Virus record (IMG/VR): IMGVR_UViG_3300027895_000005
Location: 38,139 to 102,138 of that record
DNA: 64,000 bases
Strand: one strand, 5' to 3'
From: a virus
Shown here: positions 1-38,275 of the stretch, in pieces
Layout: each line of letters opens with the position of its first letter
Position numbering within the stretch: the first letter of the stretch is position 1
Position numbers and translations under genes: made by a program
The notes under the pieces: generated by a model
What the model was told of the DNA's origin: nothing
Database searches by the model: none
Seen by the model: the letters and a program-made list of their open reading frames with translations, nothing else

Positions 1-1692
1 CGCACCAGAACCTTTCCAGTTCTTCGCCTCGATCTCGAATTCCTTCCCTTCGGGGGTGCGCACCTTGATTCGGCCGTCACCGTCCTTGCTCGCATCCCAA
101 AGTTGCCTCGCCATTGTTTCCGCGCGAACCCATTGCGGATCAGGCGATTCTTTCCCGTCCCCCTTGTCGGGTTCAGGTCGTGGCGTTTCGGTTGGTGCGT
201 CGCCGTTTTTCTCCTCTTCCCCTACCTTGACGCCAGCCTTCTCTCGCCGGTCCTGGATCGTGTACAACCCCTGCAATTCGTCCCATCTGCCCGGCGGCGG
301 ACTCGGCTTCTTCCCCTGCGCCTCCAGTTCGGCGATACGTGCCGCGACCTTCGCATCGGGCCAATTCTGCGCTTTCTCCAGGTCCGCAACCACCCGGGCG
401 CGCAGTTCCGTGGTTGCGGACTTCGAGACGAACACCGACCAGTCCTTCGGGTAAGAGACGGCGTCGGGAGATTTAGCCTCGCCCTTGTCCTTTTCCTTCT
501 CTTCCCCTCCTCCTTCTACCTCAATCATATGATCCAGACGGGAAAGATTCTCCAGTAATCCGATCCGGTGCGGACTGTCCTTCGGCGTTGCGTCCAGCGC
601 CTCGTGCAGGTAGTCCGCGATCTCTTCGAGACGATGAAGCGTCTGCTCGCCGTGCGCGCGGCGGATGCCGCCCAGGGAAGCCCGGGCCTTGGCCTTGCCC
701 TTCGCGGAGAGTCCCGGAGCCGTGTCTTCGTCATGGAACCACTCCGAACGTTCGGTCAGCGCACCCTTGATCTTCTTGCGCAGCTTGTCCTTGTCGGGCG
801 TTCCCCGCTTCGCTCGCTCTTCACGCGCAGCAGCGGATGTGCTGCCCCTGGGCGGGGTGATCTTATCGACGTAGTAGTGTTTGCCGGCCAGCTTGCCGCT
901 CTTGAACGTCCGCTCGATGGCGCCGGGCGTGCCCTTCTTGACGCGACGGTGCTGGAGGGGTTCGTCGGGGTCAGGTGATCCACTTGGATCACCTGACCCT
1001 CCAACGGAAGGCGTCTCTTCCCCGTCTGCCAGGTCAACCGCCATCCATCGGCCGTCCTGCTTCTCGACGGCCCAGCCGTGCGGTTCCAGCTCGTCGTTGG
1101 CTTCGTCAACCTCGGAGGGTGCAGGCGGCTTGCCGGCGTCGGACAGGGCGTTGTAGAGATTGGCGTAGAATCGGGCCAAGGTGTGGGCCTCGATCCAACT
1201 CCCCCCGGACTGACCAGAGATCTTTGCACCTTCGGGAACGCGCGGCGCCTCGTACCGCAGGGCGTCGAGGAAGTTGCCGCGAGCGTGCTGCAGGGGTTCT
1301 TCTTGCGGATAAAGGAACGGACCCTCTTTGCTGATCGGCGTGCGTCTGAATGCCGCAAAGCCCTTGCCGCAACGCGAACATTGCGCGCTGCCGCGAAACT
1401 GTACCCCCTGTCCAGGAATGCCGGTGTATGCATCCCCGCCGCAATACGGGCACTCGTACACCCACAGGCGGCGAGGATCGCCCTCTCGTGCGTGCTGCTG
1501 CGGCTCGTCAGGTGGCGCAGCCTGCTCCGGATGTAGCAGCGCCGCCGCTTCCTCGTCGCTCATCGCGGCAATCCGCGCTGCTTGCTGCTTGGCGATCGCC
1601 AAGCCTTGCTCATCCGTGGCATCGAACAAGAGCGCGAGCATGGCGCTCAGTTTCTCGGCGTGGATGTTGGGTGGTGGTTCCTGTGCGATCAT
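1..1692 (-). CDS. Large head-region protein, partial (>=564 aa, runs off window edge; absent from ORF track)
   Basis: Manual translation from ATG 1692 (TGATG overlap with upstream stop): MIAQEPPPNIHAEKLSAMLALLFD... open to position 1; CPYC..CSRC Zn-ribbon; ends ...EFEIEAKNWKGSGA. Confidence 0.85.
   Translation of the reverse strand, partial: MIAQEPPPNIHAEKLSAMLALLFDATDEQGLAIAKQQAARIAAMSDEEAAALLHPEQAAPPDEPQQHAREGDPRRLWVYECPYCGGDAYTGIPGQGVQFRGSAQCSRCGKGFAAFRRTPISKEGPFLYPQEEPLQHARGNFLDALRYEAPRVPEGAKISGQSGGSWIEAHTLARFYANLYNALSDAGKPPAPSEVDEANDELEPHGWAVEKQDGRWMAVDLADGEETPSVGGSGDPSGSPDPDEPLQHRRVKKGTPGAIERTFKSGKLAGKHYYVDKITPPRGSTSAAAREERAKRGTPDKDKLRKKIKGALTERSEWFHDEDTAPGLSAKGKAKARASLGGIRRAHGEQTLHRLEEIADYLHEALDATPKDSPHRIGLLENLSRLDHMIEVEGGGEEKEKDKGEAKSPDAVSYPKDWSVFVSKSATTELRARVVADLEKAQNWPDAKVAARIAELEAQGKKPSPPPGRWDELQGLYTIQDRREKAGVKVGEEEKNGDAPTETPRPEPDKGDGKESPDPQWVRAETMARQLWDASKDGDGRIKVRTPEGKEFEIEAKNWKGSGA
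968..999. repeat. Perfect 15-bp inverted repeat inside coding sequence
   Basis: gggtcaggtgatcca-ct-tggatcacctgaccc. Confidence 0.9.
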
Positions 1693-4600
1693 CAGCCGGC
1701 CCCTCCAATGGCTTGCTCGATCGGGCCAAGGATCGCCCGGCGAATCGAGTCGATCATCTCACCCTTGCCGCCACGAGCCTCAGCGCCTGGCACATTCTTC
1801 GCGATCGCTCGCAGGTCGTCGGTGGACCGAGATGCAAGCTGCATCTCATCCAGTTTCGATTCCACGTCGGCCCTGACGCGAGCCACGTTGCCGGTGTTGA
1901 TGTGTCCCGCCCTGCCAAGCGCCGTCATCTGGGCGGCCATGTCGTCGTAGAGGCTGCGCGCCCTGGCGGCGTGTTCGTGGGACGCGGTGGCTGGCGCTGG
2001 CGATGGCCCGGGTGTGGGCGTCGCCGGCTGTGCTGGCGTCGGCGGCTTCGCTTCGCCCTTGCCTGCCAACTTCCCCTCGATCCACTTCGCCACCGCAGCC
2101 TTGCCGGTGCGAGGCTGGTCCGCAGCAGGAACGGCGTAGTGATACAACCTGCCCTTCTCTTGCAGGCTCTGGTCTTGCTGTTCCTGCGTGAGTCGGTGGC
2201 TCTCGTTCAGCTTGTGCAACTCGATGAGGCGATGCCGCTTCATCGCCTCGACAACGTGCATGGCATCACCGGCCGACATTGGCTTGCCGGTTCGCTGCTC
2301 ATGCAGTCGCTGGATGTTGGCGGCCACGTCCGGCACGGTTAGCGTGAGGCTCTTGTACAGGGGCGCTTCATCGACGACTTCCGCCACGTCGGCGATATTG
2401 TCGCGCAGGAGGCGGTCGCCGTGTGCGGGGTCGATCAGCGTGGTGCGCTCGCCGCCCAGTCCTTGCGACACCATCAGGCCGTCCTTCTGCGACACGACCT
2501 TGCTGCCCGGAGGCGGCTTCAAGCTGGGGGCGGATGGCGAGACGGGCGCGGGCGCGGGCGCTGCCGGCTTTGGTGGTTGCGGTTGCTCCGCTGCCGGTTG
2601 CTCCTGCTTCCGGCTCACATAGTGGATCGGATTTGTCCCGCCGACGTCCATTGCCGCCTGTGCAAGCTTCGGGTCGGTCTTACCCCGCGCCTCGTGCGTC
2701 GTGCCGGTGAGCGTCTTGCCCAGGTGCGGCCGGATGGCGTCGTGCAATTGCTCCCGCGAAAGGCCGGTCTCCTGCTGGAGCGCGTGGAGCGGAATAAGTC
2801 CGCCCGGGTGCCTGTCGTGAAGTTCTTCGACAGCGTCCATCACGGCGCGTTGATGGCCCGTCTTGACCTCCTCGGGGGTCTTCTCCTTCCGCTTGACCGG
2901 CTTGTACATGTCCGATCGCACGTTCAGGCCGTGTACCGTGTCGATGCGGCTCTTGAGTTCGTTGCGCAGTTTGTCGGTGGTCATCGACTGGCCGCCCTTG
3001 AACTTGAGAGCGTCAGCCGAACGCAGGAGATCCGCCTTGCTCATCCCGTCGAGGACGCTGGCCGCTCCCTTTACATCTTCGGCGGTCCATGAGTCGGGAC
3101 CGCTGTCCCACATCTTTCCCAGGTGAGCGACGGCGTCGTGGGTTGTGGCGGCGTGGTCGGGTGCGACAGGCTCGACATGCATAAACGTCTCACGTTCACC
3201 CGGTACACCGCGAAGGATGTCTTCAGGCGAATGTTTGCCGGCCAGTAAACCTGCGGCAACCAGGCGAACCTTGTCATCTCGTCGCAATCCACGCAGGGCG
3301 TCGTCGAACTCTCTCCGCGAGGCGTCCACCTTGTTGCGCAGAGCCGGAATGTTGACCATGCCGCTCGCGTCCTTTGGAGCGTCCTTCATGGCCTCCTGAA
3401 CGCTCTCTTGCACCTTCGCCAGTCGCTCAGGAGAGGGGCGCGGCTCGCTGTAGACCGGCGTCTGCTCTGCCCTGCTCCGTTCGGCGTCCGACTTCTCTTG
3501 CGCCGACCACTGGCTGGCGTCGTGGGTTGTGGCGGCGTGATCCTTCGCGGCCGGCTTCACCGCGGGCAGTTCTTGCGGGACGGGCGCGGGGGATTGCTTC
3601 AATCCCCCCGCTTCGGCGTCACCTCGTTGGGCGTTTGCGGTTTTTCCTGCTCCTTTTCCGGGAGGAACTTCCAACTCAGAGGATCGCCCTGCGTGAACCG
3701 GCTTTCCCGCACCGGCTTCTCCTCGTCCGGCTGGTTCGTCAACGGTTTGTTCGAGTTCGACATGGTAACTCCCGTTCTCGTTCTTGAAGCTCTTGACGCG
3801 GAACTTGCTGTTGTGGTTGAGGAGAAGCTCCCACTCCTCCGGGACGACTGCGTAGGGCTTCACGTCCAGCCCGTGCCGCGCGGCAATCGTCATGGAAAGC
3901 TGATTCTGCTTCCCAAAGCCGAAGTCGCTCCGCGCCAGCTTCTCGTCCGTGGTGGTGGACTGATAGCCGGGTAGCTGAATCTCGCCCCCGCCATTCGCTG
4001 CCTTTTCTAGTTTACGCAGGAACGTGGCCTTGTCTGCCGACTTCATGCTCTTCATGTCGATGCCGCGATAGACGTTGACCGGCTTGTCCATTGGTGGAGA
4101 CTTGGCGAAGGCCTTCTGGAGGTTCTCATGAATACGGCGGATATCCGGATCAGAAGGCTGGCCACCCTTGTAGAGGGCGCTGTTCAGGTCGCGGAAAACC
4201 TCCTCTTCGGAGTACCGCTCCAGAGCATCCTTCTCCCCTGCCTCCAGCGCCGGCCGCGTGAAGTCGGGCAGGTAAGGCGACGGCGCCATCGCGTGTGGGT
4301 CGTCCGACGGCTTCGGCAGGGACGCCGGTTTGAAGCTGGGCCGATCGTCTGGCTTGGCCTCGGGATGCACCGCAGGCGCTTGCGGCGGCGCAACTGGCTC
4401 AGGAGCAGCAACCTCTGGCCGGGCGATTGGGGCTGGTTCAGGCTTCGCTGCTGGCGCTTCGGCCGGCCTCTGCGGCGCTGGCTGGTTCGCCCCTCCTCGC
4501 TTCGCTTCCAGTTTCGCCTTCAACCCCTCGATATCCGTCAGGTCGTGGCCGTGCAGGTCGTCCCCCAGGATCGCGTGCAACGCTTCGTAGGCTTGCTTGT

Positions 4601-5261
4601 ACCGGGGGTTGGCGTCCGGGGCGGGTTGCGCCTGTGCGCTCGCTGGCGTTGCCTTCTTGCGTGCGGGAACGGGCCTCTCGCCCTTGACGTGCTTCACCAG
4701 TTCGTCCGCGAGCGATCCCTTGCGCAGTCCGCTCGCACCCTTGACCTTGAGCGCCTTTCTCATCGTGTGGAGCTGGGCAATCGTCATCGTCGCCATCTTG
4801 CCGGCCACGCCTTGCACCATCTCTGGCGTCACGTCGGCAGCGTTGATCGCTGAGAGAGCGTCGGCAACGTCCTGCTCGGTCGCTTTGGCCGGACGCGGGG
4901 CCGGGGCGGGCTTGGGCGCAGCGGTTTTGCGTTCCTGGGGCGGCGCGTCGAAGTATCGGACCGTCCCTTGCTCGTTGATGTATCTCTTGTCACTGAACGG
5001 TTTGCCGGTCTTGCTCGTGCCGCCTGCTTTCGTCCAGGCGTATTGCAGCACGTCGGCCAGCACGCCGTGACCGGAACCGCGCATCAGTTGCAGCGGCCCG
5101 AACTCGTCAGGGGAGAGCGGTTCGTCGGGCAATGAGCGTACAGACGCCAGCGCCGCCGCTTCGTCGATGAACGCTAGCACGTCGTCGGGCAAGACGTCGC
5201 CTTGCGGGGCGCGCAGAACCGCGTCCAGAATAGCGTCAGCGGCGTCGTACAGGTCAGGCAT
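1692..5261 (-). CDS. Large multidomain protein with VIP2/exoenzyme-type ADP-ribosyltransferase domain (approx. 3746-4230)
   Basis: R-S-ExE motifs VYRG, YQSTTT, PEEWELLL; start chosen at MPDLY (5261), coupled to upstream stop; Pro/Ala linkers, repeated helical modules. Confidence 0.85.
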   Translation of the reverse strand: MPDLYDAADAILDAVLRAPQGDVLPDDVLAFIDEAAALASVRSLPDEPLSPDEFGPLQLMRGSGHGVLADVLQYAWTKAGGTSKTGKPFSDKRYINEQGTVRYFDAPPQERKTAAPKPAPAPRPAKATEQDVADALSAINAADVTPEMVQGVAGKMATMTIAQLHTMRKALKVKGASGLRKGSLADELVKHVKGERPVPARKKATPASAQAQPAPDANPRYKQAYEALHAILGDDLHGHDLTDIEGLKAKLEAKRGGANQPAPQRPAEAPAAKPEPAPIARPEVAAPEPVAPPQAPAVHPEAKPDDRPSFKPASLPKPSDDPHAMAPSPYLPDFTRPALEAGEKDALERYSEEEVFRDLNSALYKGGQPSDPDIRRIHENLQKAFAKSPPMDKPVNVYRGIDMKSMKSADKATFLRKLEKAANGGGEIQLPGYQSTTTDEKLARSDFGFGKQNQLSMTIAARHGLDVKPYAVVPEEWELLLNHNSKFRVKSFKNENGSYHVELEQTVDEPAGRGEAGAGKPVHAGRSSELEVPPGKGAGKTANAQRGDAEAGGLKQSPAPVPQELPAVKPAAKDHAATTHDASQWSAQEKSDAERSRAEQTPVYSEPRPSPERLAKVQESVQEAMKDAPKDASGMVNIPALRNKVDASRREFDDALRGLRRDDKVRLVAAGLLAGKHSPEDILRGVPGERETFMHVEPVAPDHAATTHDAVAHLGKMWDSGPDSWTAEDVKGAASVLDGMSKADLLRSADALKFKGGQSMTTDKLRNELKSRIDTVHGLNVRSDMYKPVKRKEKTPEEVKTGHQRAVMDAVEELHDRHPGGLIPLHALQQETGLSREQLHDAIRPHLGKTLTGTTHEARGKTDPKLAQAAMDVGGTNPIHYVSRKQEQPAAEQPQPPKPAAPAPAPVSPSAPSLKPPPGSKVVSQKDGLMVSQGLGGERTTLIDPAHGDRLLRDNIADVAEVVDEAPLYKSLTLTVPDVAANIQRLHEQRTGKPMSAGDAMHVVEAMKRHRLIELHKLNESHRLTQEQQDQSLQEKGRLYHYAVPAADQPRTGKAAVAKWIEGKLAGKGEAKPPTPAQPATPTPGPSPAPATASHEHAARARSLYDDMAAQMTALGRAGHINTGNVARVRADVESKLDEMQLASRSTDDLRAIAKNVPGAEARGGKGEMIDSIRRAILGPIEQAIGGAG

Positions 5262-5526
5262 CGATCGGCTCCGGGTTGCGGCTGATCTTCTCCCGGATCG
5301 TGGCATGAACGTCGGGAATGGCCTCCAGTCGCAGCTTCATGGCGGTTGCCTGTTCCAGGGACGAGACTACCCACCCGTGCTCACGCCCACACTTTTGCAT
5401 GCACGGGTCGCCATTACCACAACCGGCTCCGGAGAAGTCGCTGTGCCGTCCGGCCGCTTGAACGATTTCCTCATCGCGGGCCAGCCAATCGGCGTCCATC
5501 TTGCTTTGCGTTCGCACCTCAAACAT
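5254..5526 (-). CDS. Hypothetical protein (90 aa, MFEVRTQSK...)
   Basis: Overlap-coupled between portal and ART gene. Confidence 0.6.
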   Translation of the reverse strand: MFEVRTQSKMDADWLARDEEIVQAAGRHSDFSGAGCGNGDPCMQKCGREHGWVVSSLEQATAMKLRLEAIPDVHATIREKISRNPEPIDA

Positions 5527-5665
5527 TGCCCTGTTCCTCGTCCTCTGGCTTGGCCGGCTGGGACTGCGCCGCCTTCTTCCGCGCAGACACTTCCTCCGCT
5601 CGCTTGTCCCACGCAGCCTCAGCGGCTTCCTCTTGCTCATCTGTCAACTGGATCTCGTCGCTCAT
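5519..5665 (-). CDS. Small acidic hypothetical protein (48 aa, MSDEIQLTDEQ...)
   Basis: ATGA overlap with portal stop. Confidence 0.6.
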   Translation of the reverse strand: MSDEIQLTDEQEEAAEAAWDKRAEEVSARKKAAQSQPAKPEDEEQGNV

Positions 5666-8600
5666 GATTTGCCCTTGTTCTGCTGCATGTAGTTTTGCAG
5701 CGTCTGGTGACTGCGCGACCCTTCCGTCAGATCGAACTTGGCGTGATAGAGCGGCCCGCCGTTGACCTTCCACCAGTCGCGGCCGTTGATCTTCTCGCGG
5801 CGCTTCGCCGGTTTACCAAGCTTCACGTCCAGCTTGGCGCACTCACTGCGAACGTGTTCGGCCGCTTCTTCGGATAACTCTACTTCCTTTGTATCGTATA
5901 TGTCGAGTACGCTCTGGGCGTCGGGGAACGTCTCGCGGATGCGCTGCGTCAGCTTGGGCCGGTCTTTGGCGATACTCTCGACGCTCTCGTCATAGCCGAA
6001 CAGCGGCCAGGTGTAATAACCGTTGTAATCGCCGCCGTGGGCCGCGTGCGTCTCGATGTAGGCTACTCCAGCGCGGGCGCACGCTTCCACCTGCCCGGAG
6101 AATACCTCCAGACCCATACCGTCGCCGCGATGTTCGGGCTTCAAGACGAAGACGTCGTTGTGGCAGTACACCTCGCCGTTGCTGTTGGTCTGGAACGTGC
6201 GGGTGCATTCTTCGATCTTGGGGTGCTTGACTTCGATCTCGATATCGCCGCTGCCGTCGAGGCTGACCTTGACCTTGGCCCCTTCGGGCGCGCCTACCAG
6301 GACGTCGGCGTCGTCGAAGTCAGGAGGGCTGGGAAGATCCTCGAAGAGGCGATCCCAGACCTTCTGAGCGCCAGCGTAAGGGCCATCATCATCGTCGTCT
6401 GCAACTTCGTCGTCCTCATCATCTTCGGGAGCCTCCTGATTGTTCTCTTCCGCGAAGTTCTCTCCGGCGCGCTCCGCTTCGCCGCGGTCAGCGGTCCACT
6501 CGCCCCTGTCGCCCACATAACCGTCATCATCTCCCCACGACTCCCAGCGATAAACGGTCTCAAGGTCGCCTTCGGTAGAGTCTGGGTTGGGATCGTAGGT
6601 TCCCTCCGCAATGCGAATGCTCTGCGGGTAGTGATTCCCTTCATCGTCATAGAAGTCCCAACCACAGTGGCGCTCACCCCTACGCCTTTCCGGTTCGACA
6701 GCATCCTGGTCGATCACGCCATCCCACTCAAACGGTTTGGCCTCTTTCTTCTTTGGCTTCTTGTCCTTGGTCTTCGTCTCGCCGCCGCCGCTACCCGTGC
6801 TCACGAACTCCCCGCCGTGCGGCCCCTTGCCCGCGTGTTCGTGCCCCTGCTTGTCCTTGACATACCGCCCGGGGTTCATACGCCGCTGATACTGCTCCAG
6901 CACCTTATCGGCCAGATCCTCACGCCCTGCCGCGCGCAGGCGGGCCAAGACGGGCGTCAGGCGGGCGTAGGGGGATGGTTCACTTCCCACGGTTGAAAGT
7001 GGGATCACGGTTTCCTTGCCGTCGCGGTCGGCATCCTCCCTGTCGTACCGAAGCGCCAACCGCTCCACGCTCTCGCGCATGTTCCGCAGCGCGTCGAGGA
7101 AGTCGCCCTTGTCGGCGTCAGGATCACCACCCTCACCAGCAGCGGCCTGCTGTGCGGCAGCGTCGTCGCCGGCCGGTTCCGCTGGATTTCCGCCCTCCGG
7201 GCCACCACCCCCGGCACCGCCCATCAGCGCCGCCATCGGGTCGCCGCCCGGATCACCAGGGGCAGCGCCGGGCGCGCCAGGCGGTTGCGGCGGTTCGATG
7301 AGTTCATCACCGTCGGCTGGCTTGCTCACGCCGCCAAAGGCTCGGCCATCGTCTGCCTTGATTTTTACTCCTAGGTCCACAAGCGTCTTGAGACCGGCCA
7401 GTTTTTCGGCCGACTCTTGCGTTTCGGTCTTGAACGCCCACCACACCGGGAACTTCGCTTCGGGGTAGGTATAGCGCTGCATGGTGTTGAGCAACGACGG
7501 TTCCAGGTCGTTGCCCGTCAGCGCTTCGGCGCACCATGCGGCATCTTGCAGGGTGATGTTCCTCTTCGTCTCTTGCATGAACGAAGCAGACTCATGGTTG
7601 CTGTGTCCGCTGGCGCTTGTGGCTGACGAACTACCCTCTTGCCCTACCACACATCGCTCAATGGCCTTGTCGGCGTACTCGATCATCTTGAGTAGGAAGT
7701 CACAGCCAGTCGTCGGCACCTCGATGCGCTGGATGGTGTCGATATCTTCCTGCCCAGGGATGACAGGGACGAAGAGATTGGCCCTATCGGTGTTCTCCCG
7801 GGCGGCTTGCTGCACCGCAGCCAGAGACTCCGGATTGCCCGACTGATACCGCCAGAGGTTGATGCCCAGTCCAACGCGCGAGATGAAGTTGGTGATGTCG
7901 CCGAGCCAGTCTTTTTTGATCCAGTCCCACCAGAAGATGTGAGACCGGACACCGACACCATGCACCGCTTCGGCCTCTTCGCTGGCAAAGAAATCCCTTG
8001 CCTCCATGTACCATTTGGAGATGAAGAACCGCTCGCGCCACGTTCCCCTAAGAGACAGACCTGTACCGCCGACGCTGGTGGTCAGCAGTTGCGCGCCGGG
8101 CAGGCGATAGGCTTCGGCAGGGTTGACTAAAATGTACGGCGTGCCGTCGAGCTGGTGGCCGATGCTGTCGCCGTTGATGGGCCAGGCCTGACGGATGGTG
8201 ATGCCCGTGCGCTCCTTGTGGGGAGCGCCAAGTTGTTCCATGCGGCTCTGGTGCGCCTTCACGGCGGTCTTGTCGGTCGGGTCGTCCTGCATCGCCTGTT
8301 GCAGATAGCGAAGAACCCGGTCTTGCCTCATCATCTGCTGTGCAGCGGCCGGCAAAGGTTCGGCTGGTTTCGCCGGGTCGTCTCGCACCAGGCATTTCGT
8401 CCACTCGACCTGCACGCCGTAACGGCCGAACCAGATGGCTTCCAGCAGCCACGGGATGATGCGCGGCAACTGCCGGACGCCCTTGACGAGCCTGGTCAAG
8501 CCGTCGCGGACGCGCACCTGCTCAGGGTCTTTTTCGTCGGGGACTTGTAGTTCCCAGGGAAGGTTGGCAGCAGCGAGGATGCGCTCTTGAAGAAGCGAGC

Positions 8601-8856
8601 GGAGCCAGCAGTCGTGGCGCATGTCCTCGGCGGAGTCGCGAGCATGGCGTACAGCTTCGTCGTAACGCGCCTGCCAGTTGGTATTGTCTCCCCCGGTTAT
8701 CCTTGAAATGAACAAAACGCCGTTCGGAAGCGCGATTCCGCCGGGACGTGCGTCACCATCGGGAATGCGGTCGCGACGGTCATCCTGCCAGGGGCGGCCG
8801 TCAGCCCCGAGGATGCGTGGTTTACCATTGAGGTAGGGGGCGGTAAGGGTCGCCAT
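5662..8856 (-). CDS. Portal protein (DUF935/Mu gp29-like) with C-terminal extension ending in a GNAT-like domain
   Basis: N-half LLEAIWFGRYGVQVEW, MIEYADKAIERCVVGQ; downstream of terminase; C-term HNDVFVLKPEHRGDGMG...NGYYTWPLFGYD. Confidence 0.8.
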   Translation of the reverse strand: MATLTAPYLNGKPRILGADGRPWQDDRRDRIPDGDARPGGIALPNGVLFISRITGGDNTNWQARYDEAVRHARDSAEDMRHDCWLRSLLQERILAAANLPWELQVPDEKDPEQVRVRDGLTRLVKGVRQLPRIIPWLLEAIWFGRYGVQVEWTKCLVRDDPAKPAEPLPAAAQQMMRQDRVLRYLQQAMQDDPTDKTAVKAHQSRMEQLGAPHKERTGITIRQAWPINGDSIGHQLDGTPYILVNPAEAYRLPGAQLLTTSVGGTGLSLRGTWRERFFISKWYMEARDFFASEEAEAVHGVGVRSHIFWWDWIKKDWLGDITNFISRVGLGINLWRYQSGNPESLAAVQQAARENTDRANLFVPVIPGQEDIDTIQRIEVPTTGCDFLLKMIEYADKAIERCVVGQEGSSSATSASGHSNHESASFMQETKRNITLQDAAWCAEALTGNDLEPSLLNTMQRYTYPEAKFPVWWAFKTETQESAEKLAGLKTLVDLGVKIKADDGRAFGGVSKPADGDELIEPPQPPGAPGAAPGDPGGDPMAALMGGAGGGGPEGGNPAEPAGDDAAAQQAAAGEGGDPDADKGDFLDALRNMRESVERLALRYDREDADRDGKETVIPLSTVGSEPSPYARLTPVLARLRAAGREDLADKVLEQYQRRMNPGRYVKDKQGHEHAGKGPHGGEFVSTGSGGGETKTKDKKPKKKEAKPFEWDGVIDQDAVEPERRRGERHCGWDFYDDEGNHYPQSIRIAEGTYDPNPDSTEGDLETVYRWESWGDDDGYVGDRGEWTADRGEAERAGENFAEENNQEAPEDDEDDEVADDDDDGPYAGAQKVWDRLFEDLPSPPDFDDADVLVGAPEGAKVKVSLDGSGDIEIEVKHPKIEECTRTFQTNSNGEVYCHNDVFVLKPEHRGDGMGLEVFSGQVEACARAGVAYIETHAAHGGDYNGYYTWPLFGYDESVESIAKDRPKLTQRIRETFPDAQSVLDIYDTKEVELSEEAAEHVRSECAKLDVKLGKPAKRREKINGRDWWKVNGGPLYHAKFDLTEGSRSHQTLQNYMQQNKGKS

Positions 8857-8888
8857 ACCCGTAGGATGGCGTCAGGCTGGACAAATGG

Positions 8889-9479
8889 TCAAAGGGAACG
8901 TGAAGCAAGCACCGCAAACTCCAAATCCACTTCCGCCCAAAACTGCACCCTTTCCACTTCCGTCAGGCACAACAACTCGCCAGGCTTGCATTCCGCGATT
9001 CGGCGCACCAGATCGACTGCCGCCGAGTCCCCATCGCGAATTGCTCGCTCGACATCCAGAGGGGCGAAGTTCGCGTTTCGGCGGTTAACCGGCAGTGACT
9101 CCACTGCGGCGATGATTGCCTGGTACAGCCCCTTTTCCCGCATCATCGTTTTCAGTTTCCGGGCTAGATCCAGGATCACCCCGGCCGCACTACGGTGACC
9201 GATGGTGTTATACCTTGCAAAGGTGGGTCCAGGGCGCCGCGGAAGGTCCGGCGGCTCTCCCTGCCGACAGGACGCGAGGGCGTCCAGGACGGCTTCCTCT
9301 TCCGCGTAGGGAAGATCGCCCCACAAGCCGCCATCTACCGCCCAGAGCACCAGGACCATCGCCTGTCGTTCGGGCGACAGGGCTTCCGATTCCTCGTTCG
9401 GGAGCCAGTCAACCGATGCGCCGATCCGCGTGCGGAAAGCTTTGACCATTTCAGGAGTGACGACGACTTTGTCAGACAT
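8889..9479 (-). CDS. Hypothetical protein
   Basis: 196-aa ORF, operon-coupled. Confidence 0.65.
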   Translation of the reverse strand: MSDKVVVTPEMVKAFRTRIGASVDWLPNEESEALSPERQAMVLVLWAVDGGLWGDLPYAEEEAVLDALASCRQGEPPDLPRRPGPTFARYNTIGHRSAAGVILDLARKLKTMMREKGLYQAIIAAVESLPVNRRNANFAPLDVERAIRDGDSAAVDLVRRIAECKPGELLCLTEVERVQFWAEVDLEFAVLASRSL

Positions 9480-12060: not shown

Positions 12061-13521
12061 CTACCGCCTGGGGAACAGCCTTCCCCGACCGGGCGGGACC
12101 ATTTCGGACAGGCGTGGAGCTTCGCGGGGGGCTTGCTCGGGGGCGGGAGCGGACGAGGGGGCGTCCCAGGGGCCACCGTGCAGATCGAAGTGGGCAATCA
12201 TATACCTGATCGCGTCCGCGGAATGGTTGTCCTTGTCCACGGGTTCGTCTTTCTTGTGGCTGTCTTCCCAGATGTACGCATCTACTTCCTCGTCGAACCC
12301 GATGGGGGACTTGGATTCTTCCAGCAGAGGGTCGCGACCGTCGAGGCGGTCTCGGAAGAAGAACAGCCTCGCCTTGCCATCTCCCGCATCGCGAAGCCTC
12401 ACCTGTACCCGTTCGATTCCGGGAAGCTTGTCCTTCTTGGCCTTCGTCGTGCCCATCTTCAAGTATCGCTCAAGAGTGGCCCTACCCTCCGCGTCGTGGT
12501 CGCAGACGATGGCCTTGGGGCGGATGCGGGCGAGGATGGAGTCTACCGAATGGCCAGTCTTCTTCGCCCAACTTTCCGCCTCTTCGTGAAGCAGTTGCAG
12601 CATCCGCTTGGCGTGGTCCTCCACGAGCGTCATCGTCCGGTAGATCTCGCGGTAGCAGTAGAGGCGGCCGTCGTGGTCCTGTGCGAAGAACAGACAAGCG
12701 AAGGGGTTGGTATACCCGAAGTCGATCGACCAGTACCGGGGCCACTCCCAGGGCACGTCGAAGCGGTCGATCAGGTGAATCGTACGGTCCCAGCCTTCGT
12801 ACACCACCCCTTCGGCCTGTACCCATCGGCCGAAGCGCAGGCGCTGCTTTCGCGGGCCGGTGAGATTGTCCAGCTTGGCGATGTAGTCACGGCCAACCGA
12901 TGTCCAACCACCGTTGCGCCAGAAGAGCGGGTTGTCTTCGTGCCGACTGTCGAGCATCACCGTCTGGCCGCGGTCGCATCGCTTTTTCAGCCAGTGGGTT
13001 GGGGCGTCGGGGTTCGTGTCAGCGATGATCTGCTGGTACGGCATCTTCCCGTGACGCAACGGTCGCGTCAGCAACTCCCAATCGTTCTCGGTCAACTCGA
13101 TGGCCTCTTGAACATAAACGACGTCGTACTCCGTACTGAGCGTCTTGCTCGGCTTGTCCATGCCGCCCAGGACGATGGTTGACCCGTTGGGGTAGTGGTA
13201 AGCTTGCCGAACTCGCCTCTGTCCGCCCGTTTGTAGTGCTGGATGGTTCGGCAGGAGGACTTGAGACTCAAAAGTGACCAGCGCAGACTCGGTGAGCGAC
13301 TCTCGCGTCTTGCGGACAATCAGGCCGCGCATGCCAGGATAATTTCTGGCGCAGAGATTGAGTTTCTCGAGGGCCGCCCTCGTTTTGCCGGTGCCTGCAG
13401 GCCCAGCCAAAAGTACCTCCGGCGACCTGTCAAGAATCATCGCCAGGCACTTACCGACCGGATGATACGGCCGGTTGTTGGCAGTCACCTCTCCAGGCTT
13501 GGGATAGCTGGCGGCGCTCAT
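12061..13521 (-). CDS. terL: Terminase large subunit (PBSX-like)
   Basis: Walker A GPAGTGKT, Walker B VYVQEAIE, nuclease SIDFGYTNPF and DNHSADAIRY. Confidence 0.95.
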   Translation of the reverse strand: MSAASYPKPGEVTANNRPYHPVGKCLAMILDRSPEVLLAGPAGTGKTRAALEKLNLCARNYPGMRGLIVRKTRESLTESALVTFESQVLLPNHPALQTGGQRRVRQAYHYPNGSTIVLGGMDKPSKTLSTEYDVVYVQEAIELTENDWELLTRPLRHGKMPYQQIIADTNPDAPTHWLKKRCDRGQTVMLDSRHEDNPLFWRNGGWTSVGRDYIAKLDNLTGPRKQRLRFGRWVQAEGVVYEGWDRTIHLIDRFDVPWEWPRYWSIDFGYTNPFACLFFAQDHDGRLYCYREIYRTMTLVEDHAKRMLQLLHEEAESWAKKTGHSVDSILARIRPKAIVCDHDAEGRATLERYLKMGTTKAKKDKLPGIERVQVRLRDAGDGKARLFFFRDRLDGRDPLLEESKSPIGFDEEVDAYIWEDSHKKDEPVDKDNHSADAIRYMIAHFDLHGGPWDAPSSAPAPEQAPREAPRLSEMVPPGRGRLFPRR

Positions 13522-16420: not shown

Positions 16421-16740
16421 TACCGCGCTACTACCGCGCAACGCGCGATATTTACCTCTGGACGGGGTAATGTGAAGCAGTACGAACGCTTGTGAAGTCC
16501 GCTCAAAAATCCCCCTGTACACAATCCATCCCTCTTTGTATCCTGTTACCCGTCCGATGTTTGCGGCACGACGACGCAGCCGGACGACTGCCGTTCATAC
16601 TCACGCGCGAATGGTTCATAAGGCCAAGGTCAGTGGTTCAAATCCACTCGCCGCTACTGTCATAACATGATGCTGGCAATGGACTTGCGAACCGGATTCA
16701 TGAGAATCCGCGAGCATGGAACGGCAGGATCGGCGCGGTA
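16421..16740. repeat. Candidate integrase arm-type sites
   Basis: taccgcgc at 16421 and 16432, inverted copy gcgcggta at 16733, flanking the att core. Confidence 0.5.
16616..16657 (+). other. attP: att core (attP): 3' half of a tRNA with CAT anticodon
   Basis: TCATAA-GGCCA-AGGTC-AGTGG-TTCAAAT-CCACT-CGCCGCT-AC; perfect T arm; no 5' half; about 120 bp upstream of integrase. Confidence 0.8.
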
Positions 16741-16778
16741 AGATGTCGCGCTACCTCTTGCAGGGAGGCTTGCCTTCC

Positions 16779-17963
16779 ATGCCACGCATTCCACGAGCTC
16801 CTGGTTACCGGCTCCATCGGGCGTCCGGTCAGGCGGTCGTCACCTTCAACCAGGGCAAGCAGCGCCACACGGTTTATCTGGGCGTGTACGACAGCCCTGA
16901 ATCCCATGCCATGTACAAGCGGAAGGTCGCCGAGTGGTTTGCCGCGGGTGGGACGGAACCTCCACCGCGCAAGGCGGCGATCACGGTGAGCGAACTGCTC
17001 GCCGCCTACTGGGTTCACGCGAAGGCCTACTACGTCAAGGACGGCGAACCCACCACGCAGCAACGACGCATCAAGAAGACCATCGGGATGGTGGGGGACC
17101 TGTACGGATCAACCCCGGCCAGCGAGTTCTCGCCGCGCGCACTCAAGGCCGTGCGCGAGGTGATGGTGCGCGAGGGGTGGAAGCGGAAGGTGGTCAACCA
17201 GCGGGTCCAGCTCATCGTCCAGGCGTTCCGCTGGGCCGTCGAGGAAGAGCTGGTCGGTGCGACCGTCCACCAGGCCCTGACCGCTGTGGACGCCCTCAAG
17301 AAAGGGAGGACCCCGGCGCCGGAAAGCGAGAAGGTGGAACCTGCCCCCGAGCATTCCATCGAGGCCGTGCGGCCGATCCTCTCCCCTGCCCTCCGCGATG
17401 CGATGGACGTCCAGTTGCTGACGGCTGCGCGGCCCGGGGAAGTCCTGGACATGCGGCCGTGCGACCTGGACGTCAGGGGAGAGGTGTGGTTCTACCGCCC
17501 GGAGTCGTGGAAGACCGAACACCACGAGGGCAGCGAGAAGGTCGTCTACATCGGACCGCGGTGTCAGGAGATCCTGCGGAAGCGGTGGCCGGCGAAGGAG
17601 GATGAGTACTTCTTCTCCCCGCGCCGGGAGATGGAGGAGCGGTGCAAGAGGCTCCGGGCGGCGCGCAAGTCGCCGGTCCAGCCGTCACAGAAGAACCGCC
17701 GCAAGAAGGGGCGTAAGCGTCCCTGGGGGGAGAAGTACCTCGAGACGTCCTACGGGCACGCGGTAACCAGAGCGTGCATCAGGGCAGGCGTGGAGCACTT
17801 CTCCCCCCACCAGCTCCGCCACAGCGCCGCAACCCGAATCCGGGCGCAGTTCGGGATCGAAACAGCGTCGGTGATACTGGGGCACGCACACCTCTCCACT
17901 ACCGAGATCTATGCAGAGGCCAATACCAGCGCAGCCGTCAAGGCAATGAAAGCCGCGGGCTGA
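16779..17963 (+). CDS. int: Tyrosine integrase
   Basis: N-term PGYRLHRASGQAVV; catalytic ARPGE, HQLRH, LGH, TTEIY; RBS gggagg before MPRIP. Confidence 0.95.
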   Translation: MPRIPRAPGYRLHRASGQAVVTFNQGKQRHTVYLGVYDSPESHAMYKRKVAEWFAAGGTEPPPRKAAITVSELLAAYWVHAKAYYVKDGEPTTQQRRIKKTIGMVGDLYGSTPASEFSPRALKAVREVMVREGWKRKVVNQRVQLIVQAFRWAVEEELVGATVHQALTAVDALKKGRTPAPESEKVEPAPEHSIEAVRPILSPALRDAMDVQLLTAARPGEVLDMRPCDLDVRGEVWFYRPESWKTEHHEGSEKVVYIGPRCQEILRKRWPAKEDEYFFSPRREMEERCKRLRAARKSPVQPSQKNRRKKGRKRPWGEKYLETSYGHAVTRACIRAGVEHFSPHQLRHSAATRIRAQFGIETASVILGHAHLSTTEIYAEANTSAAVKAMKAAG

Positions 17964-37949: not shown

Positions 37950-38275
37950 GCATTCGCAAACCGACCGAGACGGACCTTATCAAGCCGTCCTTGCAACTGC
38001 TGGCGATGCGCGGAGCGTTTGCCTGGCGGAACAACACGGGCGGAATGCCAACACCTTCCGGCGGGTTTATCCGCTTCGGAACCCCCGGATCGGGGGACAT
38101 CTTTGCGGTGTTGCCCGACGGTCGGTTCCTGACGGTTGAACTCAAGTGCGGGAAAAACAAGGTGACGCCTGCGGAAGCGGCGTTCATGGCGCAGGTGCGC
38201 GACCGGGGCGGCGTATGCATCGTGGCGTACTCGATTACCGAACTGGATGCACTGCTCAAGGAGACTATGGAATGA
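37946..38275 (+). CDS. VRR-NUC family nuclease
   Basis: PGSGDI..FLTVELK..TPAEAAF. Confidence 0.85.
   Translation: MSIRKPTETDLIKPSLQLLAMRGAFAWRNNTGGMPTPSGGFIRFGTPGSGDIFAVLPDGRFLTVELKCGKNKVTPAEAAFMAQVRDRGGVCIVAYSITELDALLKETME

Follow-up and report, generated by a model that had tools for sequence, protein, structure and literature searches.

A single gene of an uncultured soil phage, in the IMG/VR virus record IMGVR_UViG_3300027895_000005, encodes a portal protein that carries a divergent GNAT-fold domain at its C-terminus. The record has 105,489 bp and an estimated completeness of 81%, and the stretch analysed here, called the window, is its positions 38,139 to 102,138, with a length of 64,000 nucleotides. 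The portal-GNAT gene lies at window positions 5662-8856 on the minus strand, as do all other features of the head operon for which window coordinates are given below, and is a single uninterrupted open reading frame (ORF) of 1064 codons with an ATG start. Its product is named P0001, and the other P numbers refer to relatives. The reading that we favour, with a probability of about 0.55, is that P0001 is a portal with a C-terminal GNAT cargo, which would be packaged at 12 copies, cleaved off, ejected with the DNA and used to acylate a host macromolecule. P0001 is a new example of the already predicted loading of enzymes into capsids and not a new kind of system.

Five contigs of 50-200 kb, with two separate ENA soil assemblies among their sources, encode exactly this 1064-aa protein, and an independent 101-kb Logan contig shows complete identity over window positions 5600-8900. 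Three fragments from the soil metagenome of a second study are also identical to the portal-GNAT gene region. The frame was compared between contigs and not between reads, a level at which rare variants could escape. The portal, the linker, a His-rich peptide and the C-terminal domain occur in the same order and in one frame in the relatives P0017 and P0004, which have 31-43% identity to P0001. The first-pass annotation of this DNA had named a stop or a frameshift between the two halves as what would refute a fusion; none is present in the independent contigs, and the fusion is kept in distant relatives. Because the ORF is identical in independent assemblies and its architecture is maintained at 31-43% identity, it is not an assembly accident.

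The portal core is formed by residues 1-505 (7342..8856) and was recognised by the Pfam model PF06074 (Portal_Mu) and by phrog_113. The Portal_Mu match has an E-value of 2.4e-29 and 103.2 bits, with a cut-off of 23.9, and covers profile positions 4-329 of 336 in two stretches; the PHROG scan assigns the region to the portal proteins of phrog_113 with E 6.5e-16. Portal_Mu is the former DUF935, so the 1064-aa ORF with a DUF935-like portal half that had been described from the letters alone is confirmed. The span given for it, 5662-7300, does contain the features listed and covers only the C-terminal extension (residues ~519-1064), the gene itself reaching position 8856. P0001 is the sole match to PF06074 in the 105-kb record, and the portal families PF04860 and PF05136 are absent from this record, which is 81% complete, in searches whose controls worked. 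P0001 is thus the only detectable portal of the phage record, and for this reason, from portal biology, 12 copies of its tail would be packaged. The gene of the large terminase subunit (12061..13521), which matches PF04466 (E 6e-10) and phrog_2 (E 3e-33), is located 3.2 kb upstream of the portal, on the same strand and in the same head operon. In a Mu-like phage the crown and wing domains of the portal remain within the capsid (PMC11445458), and the last 124 residues of the Mu portal gp29 are missing from the virion, which has been attributed to head protease I (PMC11915804).

The C-terminal domain, residues 845-1064 (5665..6324), was assigned to the GNAT fold by a structure model and by profile and fold matches in the PDB. 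When 1.84 billion cluster representatives, with clusters at 50% identity, were searched exhaustively with HMMER, relatives of this domain were found in 1931 clusters at E<=1e-3 and in 923 at E<=1e-10, and 100 family members were aligned over a core of about 190 residues. In this alignment G913, G915, N945, G946, W950, and G954 are invariant or nearly so, both glycines of motif A are kept in at least 90% of the 100 relatives, and the Q/R position is conserved. The consensus of most members starts with K...QG.G.G, and the equivalent in P0001 is RGDGMG, which matches GNAT motif A (R910-G-D-G913-M-G915, 6112-6129). Motif A is followed by a near-invariant NGYYTWP.FGY, which in P0001 is the motif-B-like NGYYTWPLFGY (5992-6024), and then by a C-terminal DWWK.NG...FDL..GSRS block. 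A lineage-specific insert of 32 residues (992-1023, 5788-5883) is common to some family members only. The motifs quoted in the first-pass annotation, FVLKPEHRGDGMG and NGYYTWPLFGYD, were located at residues 903-915 and 945-956, respectively. With 1931 relatives and near-invariant columns, these motifs are more than a chance resemblance, and the near-invariance of the motif A glycines and of NGYYTW..GY argues for a retained cofactor site.

The AlphaFold2 (AF2) model of the domain, which was built with this alignment as input, has a pLDDT of 96.7 and a pTM of 0.91; a single-sequence AlphaFold model of residues 825-1064 reached a pLDDT of 37 and was discarded. Every Foldseek match in the PDB is a GNAT, and the top Foldseek and VIA-align neighbours are GNATs in 50 of 50 cases. 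The highest VIA-align Z score is that of PA3270 with coenzyme A (CoA) (9.0 over 139 residues), followed by NatD and GCN5 (8.2), TacT (7.8), AtaT (7.7), and the anti-CRISPR protein AcrVA5 (7.5). A profile search of PDB sequences gave 17 hits, all of them GNATs aligned at beta4-alpha3, with E-values of 0.045-1.1, and its alignment sets RGDGMG on motif A of 1y9k and 8heh. Among the 100 relatives, 20 match the Pfam model Acetyltransf_7 and 18 match Acetyltransf_1, with scores below or near the cut-offs (best E 6.8e-05). The GNAT fold and the intact cofactor loop, which had been suggested from motif A, are well supported by the model, the fold neighbours, the profile hits and the conserved columns taken together. 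No GNAT subfamily stands out among the fold matches, where the scores of TacT and AtaT do not exceed those of protein acetyltransferases, so the substrate cannot be inferred from them.

Portals with a GNAT domain are not restricted to the window. Fusions of Portal_Mu and GNAT are found in seven 50%-identity clusters (P0001, P0004, P0017, P0025, P0102, P0112, and P0139), down to 31% identity, and the AlphaFold DB holds a further example, a 1068-aa “Phage portal protein”. P0025 consists of a portal, two GNAT domains and an ADP-ribosyltransferase (ART) domain of the ART-PolyVal type (PF18760), P0102 of a portal, a 2H phosphoesterase and a GNAT, and P0139 of a portal, a MuF domain and a GNAT. The first-pass annotation had advised a search for portal homologues with exchanged C-termini, and such homologues were found when about 20 relatives of the portal half were compared. 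The relatives that lack cargo end soon after the portal, at 596-690 aa. In the others the cargo is either the GNAT domain described here or an ART in P0008, P0010, and P0016, a 2H phosphoesterase in P0002, P0003, P0008, and P0020, a PI3/4-kinase-like domain in P0003, and a DUF5661 domain in P0022. P0025, P0102, P0139, P0003, and P0008 have two to four conflict-type domains each, and P0001 is composed of the portal, one recognisable effector domain and about 340 residues that match no family.

The part of the P0001 tail that connects the portal core with the GNAT domain is built by a series of short elements, some of them shared with the sister portals. It starts with a Pro/Gly/Ala-rich linker read from the sequence at residues 506-583 (7108..7341), which includes the conserved DPMAALMGGAGGGG; the linker layout SKPADGDE...PPQ...DP[ML]AALMGG occurs in about 15 portal relatives. 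The linker is followed by a conserved portal-tail peptide, GDFLDALRNMRE...ALRY, at residues 584-604 (7045..7107), defined by comparison of the portal clade. Its pattern, GDFL[DE]ALR.MRE..ALRY, is present in nearly all relatives of the clade, with or without cargo, and occurs twice in P0008 and P0010. The 927-aa protein of the head operon has a near copy, GNFLDALR, at residue ~139 (window ~1255-1278), the portal copy being at residues 584-591 (7084-7107), and a search of 102 kb of the record in all six frames gave no further match to G[DN]FLDALR. The peptide could be a targeting or processing tag.

The next element, ARLTPVLARLRAAGREDLADKVLEQYQRR, at residues 631-659 (6880..6966), is basic and probably helical, with the pattern ARL..V..LR..G..DLA, and it terminates the cargo-less relatives P0006 and P0012. 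In P0004 the helical element follows the GNAT domain and is at the extreme C-terminus, so cargo can be inserted as well as appended. In P0001 the parts that come after it are a His-rich peptide, a stretch rich in Lys, an acidic segment unique to this protein and, last, the GNAT domain. The His-rich junction peptide, KDKQGHEHAGKGPHGGEFVSTGSG, occupies residues 667-690 (6787..6858) and is kept in P0004 and P0017. Junction peptides of the GG[EQ]F type are found in 35 of 169 related proteins, where they lie between modules, sometimes twice per protein, and have His-rich, R-[VI]-P-A-G or APKGG flavours; the forms KD..GHEH.GKG..GG[EQ]F and R-[VI]-P-A-G...GGQF recur in phage proteins with a GNAT domain, for example in P0116, P0121, P0123, P0147, P0158, and P0160. 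The variable segment of residues 707-799 and the acidic run of residues 800-824 (together 6385..6738) match no Pfam family and are absent from P0004 and P0017. The linker, the motif GHEHAGKGPHGGEF (residues 671-684) and the acidic run, all mentioned in the first-pass annotation, are thus present in P0001.

Searches of the tail by other means returned little. Pfam models gave nothing meaningful on the tail divided in four pieces, an Atlas feature search with residues 575-830 gave no usable match, and when the middle region was compared by BLASTP with the ART protein and the 927-aa protein of the head operon and with the MuF-bearing P0139, short peptide matches were the only result. No description of either tail peptide was found in the papers searched. 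It is possible, if doubtful, that GDFLDALR..ALRY and GHEH.GKG..GG[EQ]F represent an undescribed loading-and-release code that marks the cuts of a head protease; the portal would then launch exchangeable enzymes stoichiometrically, at 12 copies, and other cargo of the head would be addressed or processed through these tags as well.

In the mechanism that we propose, the C-terminus of the portal faces the capsid interior, and assembly of the ring would place twelve tails of 559 residues inside the head. By analogy with the Mu portal, the tail may be cut from the portal core at head maturation, and the freed enzyme would exit with the DNA. Right at the start of infection, the GNAT domain would transfer an acyl group to a host macromolecule, most probably a protein, in host takeover or in counter-defence. 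By rough arithmetic, twelve tails of 60 kDa would take up the volume of only a few hundred bp of packaged DNA, so that room in the head is not limiting.

Several observations weigh against this mechanism. Neither a cleavage site nor a head protease was identified, and without a cut the domain would remain bound to the portal and unable to exit from the capsid. The protease families PF04586, PF00574, and PF01343 have no match in the record in searches whose controls worked, which, with divergent sequences and a record 81% complete, is not evidence of absence; PF10123, for a Mu-like protease, has no match either, but its control failed too and the result is uninformative. The C-terminal domain of P0001 matches no Pfam model, even at E<=10, and its likeness to solved GNATs is moderate (Z 7-9, TM 0.25-0.33). 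In the AF2 model the alpha1-alpha2 helices that are usual in GNATs seem to be absent, and relatives have up to four tandem copies of the domain per protein, which is unusual for an enzyme.

That no cleavage site or head protease was recognised would fit an enzyme that stays on the portal and is never injected, which is unlikely and still the strongest of the alternatives. The GNAT domain would in that case act late in the producing cell, as part of free portal subunits or on the assembling head, where it could modify proteins of the phage or the host, or it would serve as an internal head structure, and the fusion would do no more than secure co-expression. There is a parallel in the T7 portal Gp8, which is reported to act in the cytoplasm against RelA and SpoT (2026 preprint, 10.64898/2026.01.27.700999), so cytoplasmic functions are possible for portals. 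However, GNAT, ART, 2H, and InPase domains recur on MuF proteins and on giant polyvalent proteins of head operons, for which packaging is a simpler explanation, and the Mu portal, the type member of the family, loses its C-terminus in the virion.

It is rather improbable that the domain is a catalytically inactive fold used as a structural or binding module, such as an internal head protein or a decoy. The failure of P0001 to match a Pfam GNAT model, the tandem arrays of up to four copies in relatives and the canonical N-terminal helices apparently missing from the model are all compatible with a dead domain. However, conservation over 100 divergent members extends to the glycines of motif A, to the Q/R position and to the Asn-Gly-Tyr-Tyr block, and in 17 solved GNATs the profile aligns to beta4-alpha3, which binds CoA. 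Activity is known from minimal GNATs, for example from AcrVA5, which is a fold match of the P0001 domain.

Particles that deliver a growth-arresting acetyltransferase to competitors, in the manner of MuF toxins and with the tRNA-acetylating TacT and AtaT as enzymatic models, are a still more remote explanation, in which a small protein encoded downstream would provide immunity and guard the lysogen. An integrase gene at positions 16716-17963 indicates that the phage is temperate, the C-termini are polymorphic, TacT and AtaT are among the fold neighbours (Z 7.7-7.8), and two small ORFs follow the portal gene. The first encodes an acidic protein of 48 aa and overlaps the portal stop codon (5519..5665; a called gene in L001 and L002), and the second, of 90 aa, overlaps both of its neighbours (5254..5526; a called gene) and has no Pfam or PHROG match. 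Neither matches a family or has homologues beside the related portal genes P0004 and P0017, and this lack of conservation makes both of them poor candidates for immunity genes. Moreover, MuF (PF04233) is absent from P0001 and from the whole record in a search whose control worked, TacT and AtaT are not preferred over protein acetyltransferases, and the phage depends on its portal, as it would not on an accessory toxin. Finally, the chance that an assembly error or a frameshift joined two genes into the long ORF is negligible, being already refuted at the contig level by the identical independent assemblies and contigs of the second study and by the architecture kept at 31-43% identity.

Enzymes fused to head proteins have been described, and the statement of the first-pass annotation that MuF proteins, and not portals, are the known carriers of C-terminal toxin domains is wrong, since portal fusions are reported in PMC5512222 and PMC9503650. 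Iyer et al. 2017 (PMC5512222) described portal domains with fused PBECR, 2H, and InPase, as well as two families of GNATs among the polyvalent proteins, of which one is phage-borne and usually found beside an ART; T4 Alt is summarised there as an ADP-ribosyltransferase packaged in the virion. Iyer et al. 2022 (PMC9503650) added Nudix and ART fusions to the portal, and in both papers the enzymes fused to portal or MuF proteins are read as packaged and injected effectors. P0001 resembles the polyvalent proteins in being a head protein with a C-terminal conflict-type enzyme domain in a head-operon context, and the GNAT family described here shares with their repertoire the MuF, InPase, ART (including PF18760 ART-PolyVal), 2H, and GNAT domains. 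The phage-borne GNAT of Iyer et al. lies beside an ART, and here an ART is encoded by the next large gene and, in P0025, is part of the same polypeptide. P0001 differs in that a single effector domain can be recognised in it, and typical polyvalent proteins have more. The portal fusions named by these authors comprise PBECR, 2H, InPase, Nudix, ART, and lysozyme, but not GNAT, and their GNAT families were compared with the present one by description only.

The MuF polymorphic toxins (Jamet et al. 2017, PMC5576092) share with P0001 a head protein as carrier, a variable C-terminal enzyme, a temperate phage and a position near portal and terminase genes. Their carrier differs, as P0001 is a portal that would be present at 12 copies per virion, while one or two copies are reported for SPP1 gp7, and, unlike the genes of MuF toxins, the gene described here has no MuF domain in itself or in its record and no conserved immunity gene was found. 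The Mu portal gp29 (gpH) is the type member of PF06074 and therefore belongs to the same family, and it is a precedent for the release of a C-terminal tail inside the head; unlike the tail of P0001, that of the Mu portal carries no enzyme domain. AcrVA5 (6iuf), TacT and AtaT (7ak8, 6ajm), and PA3270 (1yre) have in common with the P0001 domain the GNAT core and the CoA motif (Z 7.5-9.0), but they share 6-13% identity with it and none is portal-borne. These small effectors and toxins are evidence that a GNAT can inactivate defence proteins or block translation. The T4 protein Alt is a packaged ADP-ribosyltransferase that the head protease releases and that, once injected along with the DNA, modifies host proteins immediately. 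P0001 would likewise be loaded into the head, freed by a protease and injected, whereas Alt uses a short capsid-targeting peptide in place of a portal fusion, and another chemistry.

Because they act before phage gene expression, virion-borne enzymes form a first line of attack on the defences of the host. With a portal fusion, each particle would hold a set number of twelve cargo copies at a definite site above the DNA exit channel, which would suit the study of protein release and ejection. The idea of packaged portal-fusion effectors has been based since 2017 on comparative genomics, and no experimental test of any portal fusion was found in the literature.

The portal gene is part of a co-directional head operon, in which a small-terminase-like gene with a helix-turn-helix motif precedes the large terminase, several small genes, genes of 402 and 196 aa and the portal, followed by the 48-aa and 90-aa ORFs, a 1189-aa ADP-ribosyltransferase-domain protein and a 927-aa protein. 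Besides terminase and portal, no capsid, head protease, MuF or tail gene was recognised by Pfam or PHROG, and no matches were obtained when ten large ORFs from beyond the window and the 927-aa protein were compared with PHROG; the structural module is very divergent. The ART-domain protein (1692..5261) is encoded at the usual position of the MuF gene and matches PF03496 with E 2.8e-14 at residues 354-515 of a 1204-aa form of its ORF. With 37.5% identity, the N-terminal region of this ART protein matches the beginning of a 2286-aa protein (L068:4833-11693) encoded after the P0004 portal, and the 927-aa protein (window 1-1692) matches the same 2286-aa protein with its C-terminal region. From these matches, the ART and 927-aa genes look like a split giant cargo protein, or the 2286-aa giant like their fusion.

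The relatives of the C-terminal domain form a large GNAT-like family that has no Pfam model. Its listed proteins have 164-3902 aa, and the domain occurs at any position and in one to four copies each. Three or four tandem GNAT-like copies are found in P0026, P0064, P0110, and P0154. Among 62 further members, six have MuF, two InPase, two ART, and two 2H domains and one has a lambda-type portal, while others have papain- or C39-like peptidases; the top match in BFVD is a “phage head morphogenesis domain” protein. A tblastn search of 50,697 deposited phage records found no match to the whole protein or to a solo family member.

In representative bacterial genomes, which were searched with one conserved peptide as the pattern and therefore give a biased census, 63 loci were found, mostly as stand-alone ORFs of 210-290 codons and mostly in metagenome-assembled genomes of Planctomycetota, from the groups Pirellulales, Planctomycetaceae, Gemmataceae, Thermoguttaceae, and Tepidisphaeraceae (L005-L067). 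The remaining loci belong to Chloroflexota, Acidobacteriota, Armatimonadota, Cupriavidus, and Aquitalea. The family seems to be concentrated in prophages of Planctomycetota and of other poorly studied soil phyla, and a planctomycete host of the phage would fit this distribution. In a Planctomycetaceae prophage a solo GNAT gene lies between the genes of a lambda-type portal and of the capsid. A group II intron reverse transcriptase/maturase (L021:7490-8893) is also present in the head module of a Planctomycetaceae prophage, where it is located between the solo GNAT and the capsid genes.

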